Part shown: in pieces, positions 1 to 15,873 of the stretch | Position numbering within the stretch: the stretch's first letter is position 1 | Layout: each line of letters starts with the position of its first letter | Sequence record: ON528719 | DNA from: Shigella phage ESh6 | Strand: one strand, 5' to 3' | DNA: 39,381 nt | Translations under genes and position numbers: made by a program | Notes under the pieces: generated by a model | What the model saw: the letters and a program-made list of their open reading frames with translations, nothing else | Database searches by the model: none | Told to the model about the DNA's origin: nothing

Positions 1-1047
1 GCCGGAGAAGTTACTAAAGCTGCTGCTGAGGTTTCCAAGGCTGCTGCACATGTGACTACAGCTAATGGACACGCTGACCGGGCCTACACTGAGGCAAACC
101 GCTCACGCGACGAAGCCGACCGCGCGAAACGTGAGGCAGACAAGCTGGGAAATTTCAATGGATTGGCTGGTGCACTTGATAAGGTAGATGGAACCAATGT
201 GCGCTGGAAAGGAGATATTCACACTAACGGGCGCCTTTACCTTACCTCGAATGGTTTCGACTGTGGTCAGTATCAACAGTTCTTTGGTAACGTTCCTAAC
301 CGTTATTCCGTAATGGAATGGGGTGACAAAGATGGGTGGCATCTCTATTCTGAGCGACAAACTGAGGGTGGTACTCCTACGTTGAACCTTAGAGGCCACA
401 TGACAGCAAATGGTAATGTGCGTGCTGCTGGTAACTCCTACGCAAATAACCTATTTGAGATTGACCGAGAGCAAAATTGGCCCGGTCGTGGCGCATTTGC
501 TAACCAGTATGCGGACAGGGCTGCTCCATTTACCAAGACTGGTCGCTTTCAGGCACCAAACGGTTACAGTGAGTATTACCCAATCGTTAAGGCGTTCGTT
601 GAAACACAAGGTCACGGGTATGGTACTGTTGCTACCTTTGGTATGCTGACCTCTGGCGGCGGTAGGTTTGCTAACGGGTGTGTCCATGTTATTGGGGACA
701 ATGGTACTAATGGTCTCTGGCAGTTCGACCCGAACACTGGTGGTTTCCTATCGCGTGGCGACGTACATGTTGGTGATGGTGGTATCGTCTACCAGAACGG
801 TGACATCTATGGCACTGTTTGGGGAGGCCGTCCACTGTCATCATGGCTTCGTGACCAGACCGTAAACCGCATTGCTATGAGTGACGTGAACCATGCACGG
901 CTATGGAACGCTTACGGTGTCAACGATGGCGGTGGTAAGGTAATCACAGGAATCCTCAACGGTAATGCGGACGCATTGATTGATGAGTGCCAATGGCGAG
1001 TAATGCAATACGTCCGTAATGATGGGCAACGTTTCAATATTTACTGA
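1..1047 (+). CDS. 17: Tail fibre protein gp17, 3' portion (5' portion is at the window end; permuted genome)
   Basis: Frame 1 is open from nt 1 to the stop at 1047 (ORF track 52..1047 is the same frame). ...ADRAKREADKLGNFNGLAGALDKVDGTNVRWKG...GFDCGQYQQFF matches the T7 gp17 mid-region from memory; distal ~230 aa diverge. Confidence 0.85.
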   Translation, partial: AGEVTKAAAEVSKAAAHVTTANGHADRAYTEANRSRDEADRAKREADKLGNFNGLAGALDKVDGTNVRWKGDIHTNGRLYLTSNGFDCGQYQQFFGNVPNRYSVMEWGDKDGWHLYSERQTEGGTPTLNLRGHMTANGNVRAAGNSYANNLFEIDREQNWPGRGAFANQYADRAAPFTKTGRFQAPNGYSEYYPIVKAFVETQGHGYGTVATFGMLTSGGGRFANGCVHVIGDNGTNGLWQFDPNTGGFLSRGDVHVGDGGIVYQNGDIYGTVWGGRPLSSWLRDQTVNRIAMSDVNHARLWNAYGVNDGGGKVITGILNGNADALIDECQWRVMQYVRNDGQRFNIY

Positions 1048-5994: not shown

Positions 5995-6024
5995 TTGACA
6001 ACACGAAGTAACATGCAGTAAGAT
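5995..6024 (+). promoter_or_regulatory. Host sigma70 early promoter A2
   Basis: -35 TTGACA (5995-6000), 18-bp spacer, -10 TAAGAT (6019-6024); near-identical to T7 A2. Confidence 0.75.
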
Positions 6025-6100
6025 ACACAGCGTCAACATGGTAGCACGGTGTCTTCTAGGTGACTTAAGCGCACCACGGCACACAAAGCGAAACAAACGG

Positions 6101-6129
6101 TTGACAACATGCAGTAAACACGGTACGAT
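6101..6129 (+). promoter_or_regulatory. Host sigma70 early promoter A3
   Basis: -35 TTGACA (6101-6106), 17-bp spacer, -10 TACGAT (6124-6129); near-identical to T7 A3. Confidence 0.75.
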
Positions 6130-6247
6130 GTACCGCAAGTAGTAAGGGTGTAGGGATAGGAACCGAGAAACCTGCCCGTGACCCGCCAAGGATAAGGCAC
6201 TAGCCATGAGTCGAATTCGGTCACTCATCGCATAAAAGAATAACAGG

Positions 6248-6276
6248 TTGACAGCCTCCTTTAAAAGCTGTAAGAT
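6248..6276 (+). promoter_or_regulatory. Additional sigma70-type promoter (fourth early promoter; not in canonical T7)
   Basis: -35 TTGACA (6248-6253), 17-bp spacer, -10 TAAGAT (6271-6276); sits on ~170 bp of extra sequence between A3 and the R0.3 hairpin. Confidence 0.5.
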
Positions 6277-6299
6277 GTACCACGAAATGACGGAACAGT

Positions 6300-6345
6300 G
6301 AGTCACCACACTGAAAGGTGATGCGGTCTAACGAAACCTGACCAA
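6300..6345 (+). other. RNase III site R0.3-like hairpin
   Basis: 'gagtcaccacactgaaaggtgatgcggtctaacgaaacctgacc' (tcacc/ggtga stem), identical to the T7 R0.3 region from memory. Confidence 0.55.
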
Positions 6346-6463
6346 AGACGCTCTTTAACAATCTGGTAAACGGCTCTTGAGTGTACACACGTAGCGGATA
6401 ACTCAAGGGTATCGCAAGATGCCCTTTATGATATCCACTAACAACACTATGAGGTAACACACA

Positions 6464-7335: not shown

Positions 7336-8415
7336 GTGAACGCTATCGACATCATGAACGCTATCAACGCAATCAAAGCACTACCAATCTGTGAACTTGA
7401 TAAGCGTCAAAGTATGCTCATTGATTTGCTGGTCGAAATGGTCAACAGCGAAACGTGTGACGGTGAGCTAACCGAGTTGCATATGCCGCTCGAATGTCAA
7501 GACTGGTGGACTACCTTAAAGTGCCTGACCGCTGACGCTGGCTTCACGATGCTCGGTAATGGTCACTTCTCCGCTGCATATAGTCACCCACTGCTGCCTA
7601 ACAGAGTGATTAAGGTGGGCTTTAAGAAAGAGGATTCAGGCGCTGCGTATATCGCATTCTGCCGCATGTATCAGGGTCGCGCTGGTATCCCTAACGTCTA
7701 CGATGTTCAGCGTCATGCTGGCTGTTACACGGTGGTTCTCGATGCTCTGAATGACTGCGAACGCTATGATAACGAGGATCATGAGAAGTATGCTTCAATG
7801 GCAAGCGGCATTATTGATTATAACTCGGATGTATATAACAAGCGTACTGGATGGGATGGGGAGTTCGTCGAGACTTGCAAGTTAATCCGCAAGTTCTTTG
7901 AGGGCATAGCTTCGTTCGACATGCACAGCGGTAACATTATGTTCGACGATAATGATGTACCATACATCACCGACCCTGTGTCATTCTCACACAAGGAAGA
8001 CGGTGGCGTGTTCAGCATGGACCCTGAGGAACTCATCAAGGAAGTCGAGGAGGTCGCACGCCAGAGAGCAATCGACCGCGCTAAGGAGCGTAAAGCACGG
8101 CATGAGGGTCGCTTGCAAGCGCGTAGAGTCAAACGCATTAACCGTAAGGCACGTAAGGCACACCGCGCTAAGCGTGAAAGACTAACAGCACTATGGCGTA
8201 TGAACGAGCGTCAAAAACAGCGCAACCACGAAGTAGCTGTAGATGTACTAGGAAGAACCAACAACGCTATGCTCTGGGTCAATATGCTCTCTGGGGGCTT
8301 TAATGCGCTTGAGGAGCGAATCGCGCTGCGCTGGCGTAATGCTGACCGGATGGCTATCGCTAATGGTATGCCGCTCAACATTGATAAGAAACTGGACGCA
8401 ATGCTAATGGGATGA
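7336..8415 (+). CDS. 0.7: Serine/threonine protein kinase, host-transcription shutoff (gp0.7)
   Basis: 359-aa ORF, same length as T7 gp0.7 with high identity from memory; GTG start at 7336. Confidence 0.9.
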
Positions 8416-11788: not shown

Positions 11789-12811
11789 ATGATGAACATT
11801 AAGACCAACCCATTTAAAGCAGTGTCTTTCGTAGAGTCTGCCATTAAGAAAGCTCTGGACAACGCTGGGTATCTTATCGCTGACATTAAATACGATGGTG
11901 TACGTGGTAACATCTGCGTAGACAATACTGCTAACAGTTGCTGGCTCTCTCGTGTATCTAAAACGATTCCGGCACTGGAGCACCTAAACGGATTCGATGC
12001 ACGCTGGAAGCGCCTTCTGAATGATGACCGTTGCTTCTACAAAGATGGCTTTATGCTCGATGGAGAACTCATGGTCAAGGGAGTAGACTTCAACACTGGG
12101 TCTGGCCTACTGCGCACCAAATGGACAGACACTAAGAACCAAGAGTTCCACGAAGAGTTATTCGTTGAGCCAGTCCGTAAGAAAGACAAGGTTCCCTTTA
12201 AGTTACACACTGGGCATCTGTGCATCAAACTGTATGCTATCCTCCCGCTTCACGTTGTAGAGTCTGGAGAAGACTGCGACATAATGACGCTGCTTATGCA
12301 GGAACACGTTAAGAACATGCTGCCTCTGCTACAGGAATACTTCCCTGAAATCGAATGGCAAGCGGCTGAATCTTACGAGGTCTACGACATGGTAGAACTA
12401 CAGCAACTGTATGAGAAGAAGCGTGAAGAAGGTCATGAGGGTCTCATTGTAAAAGACCCCATGGGAATCTACAAGAGAGGCAAGAAGTCCGGCTGGTTCA
12501 AAATGAAGCCAGAGAACGAGGCTGACGGCATTATCCAAGGTCTGGTATGGGGTACAGAGGGTCTGGCTAACGAAGGCAAAGTGATTGGCTTTGAGGTGCT
12601 TCTTGAGAGTGGTCGTGTAGTAAACGCCACAAACATCTCTCGCGCCTTAATGGACGAGTTCACCAATACCGTAAACATTGAAGGCCGTGACTTCTACAAT
12701 GGACACGCTTGCCAGATTAGCTACATGGAGGAAACACCTGACGGCTCCCTGCGTCACCCATCATTCGTAATGTTCCGTGGCACCGAGGACAACCCTCAAG
12801 AGAAAATGTAA
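11789..12811 (+). CDS. 1.3: ATP-dependent DNA ligase (gp1.3)
   Basis: 340-aa ORF; N-terminus MMNIKTNPFKAVSFVESAIKKALDNAGYLIADIKYDGVRGN contains adenylation motif I (K-Y-DG-R); near-identical to T7 ligase except a shorter segment near residue ~300. Confidence 0.92.
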   Translation: MMNIKTNPFKAVSFVESAIKKALDNAGYLIADIKYDGVRGNICVDNTANSCWLSRVSKTIPALEHLNGFDARWKRLLNDDRCFYKDGFMLDGELMVKGVDFNTGSGLLRTKWTDTKNQEFHEELFVEPVRKKDKVPFKLHTGHLCIKLYAILPLHVVESGEDCDIMTLLMQEHVKNMLPLLQEYFPEIEWQAAESYEVYDMVELQQLYEKKREEGHEGLIVKDPMGIYKRGKKSGWFKMKPENEADGIIQGLVWGTEGLANEGKVIGFEVLLESGRVVNATNISRALMDEFTNTVNIEGRDFYNGHACQISYMEETPDGSLRHPSFVMFRGTEDNPQEKM

Positions 12812-12818
12812 CCACACT

Positions 12819-12849
12819 GGCTCACCGAAAGGTGGGCCTTTCTGCGTTT
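12819..12849 (+). terminator. Early rho-independent terminator TE (host RNAP)
   Basis: Hairpin 'ggctcacc gaaa ggtgggcc' followed by 'tttctgcgttt' just after the ligase gene, as in T7. Confidence 0.7.
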
Positions 12850-12871
12850 AATACGACTCACTATAGGAGAT
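12849..12871 (+). promoter_or_regulatory. T7 RNAP promoter phi1.5
   Basis: 'taatacgactcactataggagat': consensus -17 to +2. Confidence 0.85.
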
Positions 12872-12878
12872 ACACCTT

Positions 12879-12971
12879 ATGATGTATTTAATGCCATTAC
12901 TCATTATTATCATTGGATGTCTTGCGCTTCATTTTAAGGATGACGACGACATGCCAGATGGTCACGCTTAA
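12879..12971 (+). CDS. 1.5: gp1.5 homolog (small hydrophobic/acidic peptide)
   Basis: 30-codon [33 protein letters not shown], similar to T7 gp1.5 from memory; sits between phi1.5 and phi1.6. Confidence 0.6.
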
Positions 12972-12991
12972 TACGACTCACTATAGGAGAC
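12969..12991 (+). promoter_or_regulatory. T7 RNAP promoter phi1.6
   Basis: 'taatacgactcactataggagac'; overlaps the 1.5 stop codon. Confidence 0.85.
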
Positions 12992-12996
12992 ACTAT

Positions 12997-13257
12997 ATGT
13001 TCCGACTTCATTTCAACAAAAGCATTAAGAATTTCACAGTTCGCCGTGCTGACCGTTCAATCGTATGTGCGAGCGAACGCCGAGCTAAGTTACCTCTTAT
13101 TGGTAATACAGTTCCTCTGGCACCGAGCGTCCACATCATTATCACTCGTGGTGACTTCGAGAAAGCAATAGACAAGAAACGTCCGGTTCTTAGCGTGGCA
13201 GTGACCCGCTTCCCGTTCGTCCGTCTGTTACTCAAACGAATCAAGGAGGTGTTCTGA
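12997..13257 (+). CDS. 1.6: gp1.6 homolog
   Basis: 86 aa from ATG 12997 (ORF track 12913..13257 starts upstream of the promoter); length and position match T7 gp1.6. Confidence 0.75.
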
Positions 13258-13467
13258 TGAGCAAAGACATGGTAAACCAACCTGCGCATTATACTTCTGG
13301 CGGTATTGAATGCCTTGACGCTATCAGGGCTTCGATGACAGAGGAGGCATTTAAAGGATTCCTTAAAGGTAATGTACTTAAATACATGTGGCGTTACGAG
13401 AAGAAGTTTAACCCTACTGAGGACTTGAAGAAGGCTCAGTGGTACTTGAGTAGATTGGAGGAAGCTA

Positions 13468-13493
<26 letters not shown>
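13257..13493 (+). CDS. 1.7: gp1.7-related protein, short form (C-terminal region only of the T7 nucleotide kinase)
   Basis: 78-aa ORF; ...QPAHYTSGGIECLDAIRASMTEEAFKGFLKGNVLKYMWRYEKK resembles only the C-terminal part of 196-aa T7 gp1.7 (recalled). Confidence 0.65.
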
Positions 13494-13789
<296 letters not shown>

Positions 13790-13792
<3 letters not shown>

Positions 13793-13812
13793 TACGACTC
13801 ACTATTAGGGAA
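13790..13812 (+). promoter_or_regulatory. T7 RNAP promoter phi2.5 (A-initiating)
   Basis: 'taatacgactcactattagggaaga', identical to the T7 phi2.5 promoter that starts with A; overlaps the gene 2 stop. Confidence 0.85.
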
Positions 13813-13857
13813 GACTCCCTATGAGAAACTAAACGAAACCTAAAGGAGATTAATATT

Positions 13858-14556
13858 ATGGCTAAGAAGATTTTCACCTCTGCGCTTGGTACTGCTGAAC
13901 CTTACGCTTACATCTCAAAGCCTGACTACGGTAACGAAGAGCGTGGCTTTGGGAACCCTCGTGGTATCTTTAAAGTTGACCTGACAATTCCCAACAAAGA
14001 CCCGCGTTGTCAACGTATGGTCGATGAAATCGTGAAGTGTCACGAAGAGGCTTATGCTGCTGCCGTTGAGGAATATGAGGCTAACCCGCCATCCGTAGCT
14101 CGTGGTAAGAAACCGCTGAAACCGTATGAAGGTGATATGCCGTTCTTCGATAATGGAGACGGTACGACTACCTTTAAGTTCAAATGCTACGCGTCCTTCC
14201 AAGACAAGAAGACCAAAGAGACCAAGCACATCAATCTGGTTGTGGTTGACTCCAAAGGTAAGAAGATGGAAGACGTTCCGATTATCGGCGGTGGCTCTAA
14301 GCTGAAAGTCAAGTATTCTCTTGTTCCGTACAAGTGGAACACTGCTGTAGGTGCGAGCGTTAAGCTGCAACTGGAATCCGTTATGTTGGTCGAACTGGCT
14401 ACCTTTGGTGGCGGTGAAGACGATTGGGCTGACGAAGTTGAAGAGAATGGCTATGTTGCCTCTGGTTCTGCCAAAGCGAGCAAACCACGCGACGAAGAAA
14501 GCTGGGACGAAGACGACGAAGGCTCTTACGAAGAAGACTCAGATGGAGACTTCTAA
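13858..14556 (+). CDS. 2.5: Single-stranded DNA-binding protein (gp2.5)
   Basis: 232-aa ORF, same length as T7 gp2.5; acidic C-terminal tail ending ...EEDSDGDF. Confidence 0.95.
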   Translation: MAKKIFTSALGTAEPYAYISKPDYGNEERGFGNPRGIFKVDLTIPNKDPRCQRMVDEIVKCHEEAYAAAVEEYEANPPSVARGKKPLKPYEGDMPFFDNGDGTTTFKFKCYASFQDKKTKETKHINLVVVDSKGKKMEDVPIIGGGSKLKVKYSLVPYKWNTAVGASVKLQLESVMLVELATFGGGEDDWADEVEENGYVASGSAKASKPRDEESWDEDDEGSYEEDSDGDF

Positions 14557-15012
14557 GTGGCTGGCGCATACGCTGCGCGTGGTATCAGAAAGGTCGGGAC
14601 ATTCCGTTCCGGCCTAGAAGATAAGGTCTCTAAGCAGCTAGAGGGTAAGGGCATTAAGTTCGACTATGAACTGTGGAAAATCCCTTACGTTGTCCCTGCG
14701 AGTAACCATGTCTACACTCCAGACTTCCTGCTGCCTAACGGAATCTTTATTGAAACCAAAGGTTTATGGGAGAGTGACGACCGAAAGAAACACTTACTGA
14801 TTCGCGAACAGTTTCCAGAACTGGACATCCGTCTGGTATTTTCTAGCTCACGTACCAAGCTGTATAAAGGGTCTCCGACCAGTTACGGCGAATGGTGTGA
14901 GAAGCACGGTATTCTGTTTGCTGACAAATTAGTTCCTATAGAATGGCTCAAAGAACCTAAAAAGGAGGTGCCATTTGACAAGCTGAAACAATCGAAGGGA
15001 GGAAAGAAATAA
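14557..15012 (+). CDS. 3: Endonuclease I, Holliday-junction resolvase (gp3)
   Basis: 151-aa ORF with GTG start; ...GIRKVG.FRSGLEDKVSKQLE.KGIKF...PDFLLPNGIF.ETKGLWESDDRKKHLLIREQ matches T7 gp3. Confidence 0.9.
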   Translation: MAGAYAARGIRKVGTFRSGLEDKVSKQLEGKGIKFDYELWKIPYVVPASNHVYTPDFLLPNGIFIETKGLWESDDRKKHLLIREQFPELDIRLVFSSSRTKLYKGSPTSYGEWCEKHGILFADKLVPIEWLKEPKKEVPFDKLKQSKGGKK

Positions 15013-15467
15013 TGGCTCGTGTACAGTTTAAACAACGTGAATCTACTGACGCAATCTTTGTTCACTGCTCGGCTACCAAGCCAAGTCAGAATGTGGGTGT
15101 CCGTGAGATTCGCCAGTGGCATAAAGAGCAAGGTTGGCTTGATGTGGGGTATCACTTTATCATCAAGCGTGATGGTACTGTAGAGGAAGGCCGAGATGAG
15201 ATGGCTGTAGGTTCTCACGCTAAGGGCCACAACCACAACTCTATTGGTGTCTGCCTTGTTGGTGGAATTGACGATAAAGGTAAGTTCGACGCTAACTTTA
15301 CGCCAGCCCAAATGCAATCCCTTCGCTCACTGCTTGTCACACTGCTGGCTAAGTATGAAGGCGCTGTACTTCGCGCGCATCATGAGGTCGCGCCGAAGGC
15401 ATGTCCTAGTTTCAACCTGAAACGCTGGTGGGAGGAGAATGAACTGGTTACGTCTGACCATGAGTAA
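15012..15467 (+). CDS. 3.5: Lysozyme, N-acetylmuramoyl-L-alanine amidase; also RNAP inhibitor (gp3.5)
   Basis: 151-aa ORF near-identical to T7 lysozyme (MARVQFKQRESTDAIFVHCSATKPSQNVGVREIRQWH...). Confidence 0.95.
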   Translation: MARVQFKQRESTDAIFVHCSATKPSQNVGVREIRQWHKEQGWLDVGYHFIIKRDGTVEEGRDEMAVGSHAKGHNHNSIGVCLVGGIDDKGKFDANFTPAQMQSLRSLLVTLLAKYEGAVLRAHHEVAPKACPSFNLKRWWEENELVTSDHE

Positions 15468-15873
15468 TTTACGCATAGACCCGTCAAGTCCTTCCGGTAT
15501 CTCCAAAGGTGATAAACCTATTGGGTGGATTCACAAAGGAAGATATTGGAGGATGCGGATAAACGGTAAAGCAGTGATGTGCCATGTGGTGATAATGGAA
15601 CTAAAAACAGGAGAACCGATTCCAGAAGGACTGGAAGTTGACCACATAAACAGGAACGGGTTGGACAATTCAATTGGGAACCTTCGCCTAGTTGACCGCC
15701 AAACCAATGTCTGTAATACCGGATGTCGTAAGGACTCAAAGACAGGGGTTAAGGGTGTTAGCTATCGAGAAGGTAGACTCAAGCCTTATTCCGCACACAA
15801 ACAGCGTAATGGTATTCGAAAGTGTAAATCTTTCGAGACTATTGAGGAAGCTGTAAAGTGGCTCGATAATTAA
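15460..15873 (+). CDS. 3.8: HNH endonuclease with AP2-like DNA-binding domain, at the gene 3.8 position
   Basis: ORF track 15439..15873; likely start ATG 15460. HNH motif EVDHINRNGLDNSIGNLRLVDRQTN and AP2-like GVKGVSYREGRLKPYSAHKQRNG. Not orthologous to recalled T7 gp3.8. Confidence 0.72.
   Translation: MSNLRIDPSSPSGISKGDKPIGWIHKGRYWRMRINGKAVMCHVVIMELKTGEPIPEGLEVDHINRNGLDNSIGNLRLVDRQTNVCNTGCRKDSKTGVKGVSYREGRLKPYSAHKQRNGIRKCKSFETIEEAVKWLDN

Follow-up and report, generated by a model that had tools for sequence, protein, structure and literature searches.

A stand-alone DUF3310 allele occupies the gene 1.7 slot of Shigella phage ESh6

The DNA analysed here, referred to as the window, is the whole stretch of 39,381 nucleotides from Shigella phage ESh6 (record ON528719). 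It is a T7-like phage genome containing ten promoter cores of the type TAATACGACTCACTA, and its best whole-genome matches were Teseptimavirus phages with identities of at most about 93%. Inspection of the region around gene 1.7 revealed the following features.

12849..12871 (+): T7-type promoter at the phi1.5 position, TAATACGACTCACTATAGGAGAT, upstream of the 1.5-1.6-1.7-1.8-2 block; the equivalent is annotated in T7 and 13a
12969..12991 (+): T7-type promoter at the phi1.6 position, TAATACGACTCACTATAGGAGAC, directly 5' of genes 1.6 and 1.7; phi1.6 is annotated in T7 and 13a
12997..13257 (+): gene 1.6, 86 aa, T7-type upstream neighbour, identical to T7 gp1.6 at 83/86 residues
13243..13250 (+): Shine-Dalgarno sequence AAGGAGGT for gene 1.7, read in the sequence
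13257..13493 (+): gene 1.7, short allele encoding a 78-aa stand-alone DUF3310 protein (ORF, Pfam PF11753, PHROG)
13260..13472 (+): segment common to phages of the phiA1122/Bas102 type, 89-91% nucleotide identity (blastn)
13260..13580 (+): replaced cassette of 321 bp, defined by the gap between blastn HSPs; T7 has 711 bp there (the rest of 1.7 and most of 1.8)
13468..13596 (+): gene 1.8, 42 aa, 13a/PHB19-type allele (ORF; alignment with 13a, PHB19 and T7 gp1.8; phrog_1312, E=1e-20)
13598..13792 (+): gene 2, host RNA polymerase inhibitor, 64 aa, T7-type downstream flank (61/64 identical to T7 gp2; Pfam RNA_pol_inhib, E=4e-28)

An earlier note on this DNA had placed a 78-aa ORF directly after gene 1.6, and its coordinates, ATG start and sequence were all reproduced in our ORF listing, with the TGA stop lying inside the end coordinate. 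The TGA of gene 1.6 (13255-13257) and the ATG of gene 1.7 (13257-13259) have one base in common (TTCTGATGAGC), and the junction reads …GTG TTC TGA/ATG AGC… from gene 1.6 into the short gene 1.7. The T7 junction is identical in layout, with the 1.6 stop and the 1.7 start both at 8166. The Shine-Dalgarno sequence lies within the 3' end of gene 1.6. At the opposite end, the start of gene 1.8 overlaps the end of gene 1.7 by 26 nt, and gene 2 comes after gene 1.8. No sigma-70-like promoter was found in 12700-13900, and terminators there were not above chance expectation. The short gene 1.7 is expressed from T7-type promoters; the phage RNA polymerase would transcribe it from phi1.5 and phi1.6, and its translation would be coupled to that of gene 1.6. 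An antisense ORF of 165 aa spanning genes 1.6 and 1.7 (13008-13505, minus strand) was rejected as spurious, having no PHROG match and lying opposite conserved plus-strand genes.

The reading frame cannot be extended upstream. An in-frame stop is located at 13191, 22 codons up and inside gene 1.6, and there is no start codon in frame between this stop and 13257. A displaced N-terminal part of gene 1.7 elsewhere in the window was ruled out by tblastn, which revealed no counterpart of T7 gp1.7 residues 1-120 in the whole window (E>=0.94). The short ORF is unlikely to be a sequencing artefact, since it recurs in independently sequenced phages and in a cluster of 99%-identical proteins (23 sequences on 15 contigs). 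An extension missed through a sequencing error, which the earlier note had named as grounds for giving up its reading, is thus improbable.

The gp1.6 protein (12997-13257) matches Pfam PF06726, named 'Bladder cancer-related protein BC10', with E=2.8e-23 over profile positions 1-64 of 65; the name is odd for a T7 gp1.6-like protein and may reflect the make-up or the naming of that Pfam family. Further upstream, gene 1.4 is missing at 12675-12850, the T7 locus segment 1195-1361 being without a counterpart, and the DNA ligase is of 340 aa compared with 359 in T7 because of a gap near the 3' end of its gene. Phages 13a and phiA1122 have the same layout as ESh6 in this respect. Directly after the lysozyme/amidase gene (15012-15467), an ORF of 144 aa with an HNH motif (15439-15873, plus strand; …EVDHINRNGLDN…) is probably a homing endonuclease gene at the gene 3.8 position.

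We compared the locus with that of T7. As the earlier note had stated, T7 gp1.7 is a protein of 196 aa (NP_041967) and is not itself short; the product encoded here is 118 aa smaller. BLASTP aligned it only with residues 122-183 of T7 gp1.7, with 27/62 residues identical (44%, E=2e-11), which agrees with the note's statement that only a C-terminal-like portion is encoded. This value of 44% in the shared domain is to be set against 97% (83/86) for gp1.6 and 95% (61/64) for gp2 on either side. At the DNA level, blastn homology to T7 (91%) broke off at 13259, where the 1.7 start codon ends, and restarted at 13581, 16 nt short of the end of gene 1.8, whereas no DNA similarity to T7 was detectable from 13260 to 13580. 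The GC fraction of this segment is 0.436, compared with a window mean of 0.485, and a value this low or lower occurs in only 6.5% of stretches of the same size. From 13482 on, the window is 93% identical in DNA to phage 13a, whose own gp1.7 is of the T7 type with 179 aa. No nucleotide similarity was found by blastn between the short gene 1.7 and gene 1.7 of either T7 or 13a.

A deletion derivative would retain about 90% nucleotide identity in the part that was kept, and the truncation scenario is therefore not matched. The divergence of the domain between highly similar flanking proteins, together with the lack of T7 DNA similarity, demonstrates cassette replacement rather than deletion. We conclude that the short gene 1.7 is a divergent stand-alone allele, which was swapped in and was not derived by truncating a T7-type gene. 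The exchange would have taken place between T7-like phages, with its left joint at the 1.7 start codon and its right joint at about 13473-13481, where the 13a-type gene 1.8 begins. At least three alleles (196, 179 and 76-87 aa) are found in the gene 1.7 slot of closely related phages, which are about 90% identical elsewhere.

Yersinia phage phiA1122 (NP_848270, 76 aa), Escherichia phage Bas102 (XPK42544, 87 aa), PHB19 (QHI00770, 77 aa) and Yersinia phage vB_Yep_9 (78 aa) all carry this short allele. The alignment with short 1.7 homologues of T7-like phages that the earlier note had proposed gave 93-99% protein and 89-93% nucleotide identity to the ESh6 allele across these four phages, the protein being 97% identical to that of PHB19 and about 93-95% identical to that of phiA1122. 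In the phiA1122-type systems, as here, the gene lies between genes 1.6 and 1.8 and encodes a stand-alone DUF3310 protein. Their final six or so residues differ from ours, because the right-hand recombination joint falls in the 3' end of gene 1.7. In phiA1122 an HNH endonuclease gene is inserted between 1.7 and a T7-type 1.8, whereas ESh6 has no HNH gene there and a 13a-type 1.8; PHB19 and vB_Yep_9 carry the same combination as ESh6, a short 1.7 with a 13a-type 1.8 and no HNH gene. The RefSeq product name of NP_848270 is 'nucleotide kinase', with the note 'similar to listeria phage 2389 protein'. The vB_Yep_9 record (PV596790) leaves the DNA from gene 1.6 to gene 2 blank, which is an annotation gap: an intact 78-aa DUF3310 ORF nearly identical to ours is present at 1055-1291 (locus coordinates), along with a 1.8 ORF. 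The short gene 1.7 has thus been in public records since phiA1122, and ESh6 holds one more copy in a slightly different mosaic.

Comparison of five short alleles gave a dN/dS of 0.03-0.05 at a dS of 0.5-0.7, with 15-19 synonymous as against 4-5 non-synonymous differences from the ESh6 gene. Purifying selection on the short gene 1.7 is therefore strong, and this, along with the cluster of 23 sequences, rules out a decaying remnant as well as an assembly artefact.

Genes for HNH homing endonucleases adjoin or lie near DUF3310 genes in phiA1122 (1666-2136) and in the Klebsiella phages 37P2 (2118-2498) and BUCT790 (1905-2372), all in locus coordinates. Homology between the window and phiA1122 stops at window position 13472. 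This corresponds to phiA1122 locus position 1670, about 4 nt past the start of the HNH ORF (1666), and is consistent with a homing-associated exchange.

Whether the short product is a complete domain was determined by profile searches. The 78-aa protein matched Pfam DUF3310 (PF11753) with E=6e-25 and 87.5 bits, against a gathering cut-off of 24, and its residues 6-64 covered profile positions 1-59 of 60. It also matched PHROG families that carry a nucleotide kinase annotation (best E=4e-32). In T7 gp1.7, the Pfam search located DUF3310 at residues 122-184 as the sole domain, and residues 1-121 matched nothing. A Pfam Mito_carr match of the short protein (E=0.02) was below the cut-off and was dismissed, and the NCBIfam search gave no match for either protein.

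Residue conservation of DUF3310 was computed over 56 and over 270 relatives. Twenty positions were at least 95% conserved among the 270 relatives (V6, P9, H11, Y12, E18, C19, A22, G34, L36, K37, G38, K42, Y43, R46, K50, D56, K59, A60, Y63 and L67). The short protein keeps all 20 in the alignment, and T7 gp1.7 has 14 of them, including nearly every polar one (H, Y, E, K, Y, R, K, D, K, Y). K37 is 96% conserved in the subfamily of the short-protein type, but is not conserved in T7 gp1.7. The family-invariant set of PxHY, E18, G34, G38, K42-Y43, R46, K50, D56, K59 and Y63 is complete in the short protein. The 78-aa protein is the whole DUF3310 domain and no fragment, and gene 1.7 of ESh6 is an intact, real and functional gene. 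The earlier note had left the choice between a lost nucleotide kinase activity and a minimal functional domain; the latter is the better supported of the two.

The AlphaFold model of the short protein (pLDDT 81.6) is a helical hairpin with helices at residues 20-25, 29-48 and 53-77. The N-terminal 19 residues, which hold the invariant PxHY motif, are disordered in the model. Foldseek against BFVD retrieved DUF3310, SaV-like and nucleotide-kinase-annotated phage proteins (probability 1.0, TM about 0.65-0.8). The model had no informative structural match to a solved nucleotide-binding or kinase fold, and a PDB sequence search with the short protein gave only a chance match (E=0.72); the case for catalysis therefore gains no independent backing from structure. 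P-loop NMP kinases such as host Tmk and Gmk and the T4 gp1 dNMP kinase carry out the reaction, dNMP to dNDP, that has been proposed for the gp1.7 family. Unlike these, the short protein has neither the alpha/beta P-loop fold, being predicted as an all-helical hairpin, nor the Walker A motif GxxxxGK[ST], which is absent from the 78-aa sequence, and it matched no kinase family of Pfam or NCBIfam. As modelled, the monomer hairpin plausibly requires partners, and an active site would have to arise between subunits.

DUF3310 is widespread. Homologues were detected by tblastn in 1,731 records of phages whose hosts include Klebsiella, Mycobacterium, Enterococcus, Staphylococcus and Listeria, and an exhaustive HMMER scan yielded 22,599 clusters (50% identity) at E<=1e-3. 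The best 120 database proteins had a median length of 86 aa, 41 of them being 70-79 aa long. Among the best 150 of the 22,599 cluster representatives, 35 (about a quarter) are essentially stand-alone and 115 have a C-terminal DUF3310 behind N-terminal extensions of very variable length. The extension contains at least four cysteines in 35 of 160 N-terminally extended relatives, as in T7, in CxxC…CxxC-like arrangements that echo the T7 N-terminus with unrelated sequences. These architectures are most simply read as a functional core, DUF3310, with interchangeable N-terminal accessories, of which the Cys-rich N-terminal region of T7 gp1.7, about 120 aa long, would be a lineage-specific example. 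In unrelated phages, the homologues reside in replication or early modules beside helicase, primase, exonuclease and HNH genes, a neighbourhood that fits a role in DNA metabolism.

The best-scoring cluster representative (P0121, 179 aa) has three matched DUF3310 stretches in one chain, which suggests that a protein otherwise presumed to oligomerise also exists in tandem-domain versions. A DUF3310 protein of 121 aa, about 71% identical to ours (P0040), is encoded at 6001-6366 on two contigs, L007 and L008, that resemble conjugative elements (ParA-like, HTH_36, SSB, VirB8, CagX, TrbI, topoisomerase). DUF3310 proteins thus occur outside phages as well, and the family may belong among the genes that are required early after DNA entry.

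What the short protein does was considered in the light of T7. Passages of several papers describe T7 gp1.7 as a nucleotide kinase with dTMP and dGMP as substrates and dTDP and dGDP as products (PMC11897194, PMC12846349, PMC10700055), and T7 gene 1.7 is non-essential under laboratory conditions (PMC9712115). It shares with the short gene the genomic slot, the promoters, the likely translational coupling, and a DUF3310 domain in which 14/20 near-invariant residues agree. It differs in its N-terminal region of about 120 aa, which is absent from the short protein as from the window, and the shared domain is 44% identical with no similarity in DNA. The activity has been measured for T7 gp1.7 alone, and no kinase assay is known for a stand-alone DUF3310 protein. 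Wild-type T7 is sensitive to dideoxythymidine, and T7 delta-1.7 resists it. In the work of Tran et al. (Mol Microbiol 2010; JBC 2012), a second, natural form of T7 gp1.7 without about 41 N-terminal residues was reportedly equally active, and the C-terminal half was reportedly sufficient for dideoxythymidine sensitivity. The enzyme is also said to be approximately a 12-mer and to need no metal ion.

If these reports hold, most of the catalytic unit lies in the DUF3310 half. Given the same slot and the same conserved polar residues, the short protein is then most likely the same enzyme in a minimal form. By analogy with T7 gp1.7, we infer that it would assemble as a homo-oligomer; it would then phosphorylate dTMP and dGMP to the diphosphates, and these would top up the precursors for phage DNA synthesis. 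Among the points against a kinase, an equivalent of T7 residues 42-121, which are reportedly part of both active T7 forms, is absent from the short protein, and K37 is conserved in the short subfamily but not in T7. On balance, we give dTMP/dGMP kinase activity a chance of one half or slightly better. The explanation as a whole, an intact phiA1122-type allele that arrived by cassette exchange, consists of a single DUF3310 domain and acts as an oligomeric dTMP/dGMP kinase, is in our judgement the probable one.

The strongest competing possibility accepts that the gene is intact and selected, but holds that a bare DUF3310 is no kinase by itself. The domain would rather be a module for oligomerisation or for binding proteins or nucleotides, acting on a host target as a takeover protein or a toxic early protein in the manner of SaV, and catalysis in T7 would need residues 42-121 as well. 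The SaV protein (ORF26 of the lactococcal phages sk1 and p2; sk1 locus 541-927, minus strand) is a DUF3310 member with 35.4 bits and, like the short protein, a small early phage protein; passages in PMC8306868 and PMC11373665 describe it as toxic and as binding AbiV. Among the most cytotoxic proteins tested were the DUF3310 proteins of the mycobacteriophages Waterfoul (gp47), Hammy (gp54) and Adephagia (gp51), whose genes occupy an early-lytic genome location (PMC9339283, PMC10700055, PMC11373665). T7 gp1.7 itself was reported as an activator of EfAvs5 (PMC11897194). The hairpin model without a recognisable nucleotide-binding fold points in the same direction, as does the 71%-identical homologue, which stands beside SSB and type IV secretion genes and not among genes of nucleotide metabolism.

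These likenesses have their limits. The SaV protein shares 13/41 identities (32%, E=0.006) with the short protein within the domain and no similarity outside it; it has DUF3310 at the N-terminus followed by a 60-aa C-terminal extension, and no nucleotide kinase activity is reported for it. Membership of the short protein in a SaV subgroup was rejected on account of this distant match. The mycobacteriophage proteins, at 208-313 aa, are much longer than ours, have unrelated extensions, and are known by their toxicity phenotype only. Toxicity upon over-expression would also be expected of an unregulated nucleotide kinase, and the polar residues common to T7 gp1.7 and the short form resemble an active or binding site, not a mere packing core. 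The dideoxythymidine sensitivity reportedly conferred by the C-terminal half of T7 gp1.7 (Tran et al. 2010) likewise speaks for catalysis. We regard a non-catalytic module as rather unlikely. SaV with AbiV and T7 gp1.7 with EfAvs5 are two cases in which a DUF3310 protein has been reported as the trigger of an abortive-infection defence (PMC11897194 for the latter), and we found no literature treating them jointly.

These defences raise a further possibility, that the allele swap serves mainly for immune evasion, the short form keeping the core function while escaping sensors of T7-type gp1.7 such as Avs5. Co-expression of T7 gp1.7 triggers filamentation and NADase activity of EfAvs5 (PMC11897194), SaV determines sensitivity to AbiV (PMC8306868), at least three alleles segregate at the locus among phages that are otherwise about 90% identical, and N-terminal extensions are highly variable across the family. 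However, the EfAvs5 paper terms gp1.7 only a potential activator (PMC11897194). T7-like phages routinely swap early genes in mosaic fashion, for which no special selection is required, and the HNH homing endonuclease genes adjoining DUF3310 genes offer a neutral drive mechanism. Evasion as the main cause is accordingly improbable. Least credible of all is the remnant of the earlier note, taken here as a T7-type gene with its 5' two-thirds deleted and its function probably lost: a product 118 aa shorter that matches only the C-terminus of T7 gp1.7 would agree with it, but at the nucleotide level the gene does not resemble gene 1.7 of T7 or 13a, the domain is 44% identical between flanking proteins at 95-97%, the DUF3310 profile is covered in full, dN/dS is 0.03-0.05 across five phages, the frame is open with its start codon and Shine-Dalgarno sequence at the canonical position, and the nearest relatives, which come from many other phages, are 71-90 aa long and likewise stand-alone. 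A pseudogene is thereby refuted, and the 'remnant' should be renamed an alternative stand-alone allele.

Returning to the minimal kinase, a bolder form of the idea is that a bare DUF3310 of about 60 residues, as a homo-oligomer of hairpins, would be a self-sufficient, metal-independent kinase of an unsolved fold class, and that the long, short and divergent alleles at the 1.7 locus would be kept circulating because abortive-infection sensors (Avs5 for T7 gp1.7, AbiV for SaV) recognise certain versions of the protein and not others. We hold this to be unlikely.

For ESh6 itself the finding carries little weight, as near-identical copies are known and are routinely annotated as 'nucleotide kinase' or 'DUF3310'; it is real but ordinary. 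The label 'nucleotide kinase' on thousands of stand-alone DUF3310 proteins appears to be a transfer by analogy from T7 gp1.7. The gene 1.7 slot constitutes a natural experiment, in which phages about 90% identical carry a protein of 196, 179 or 76-87 aa in one place. These alleles bear on whether catalysis by an unusual, structurally unsolved kinase resides in the bare DUF3310 domain, and on which part, the N-terminal region or the domain, is sensed by defences of the Avs5 type.
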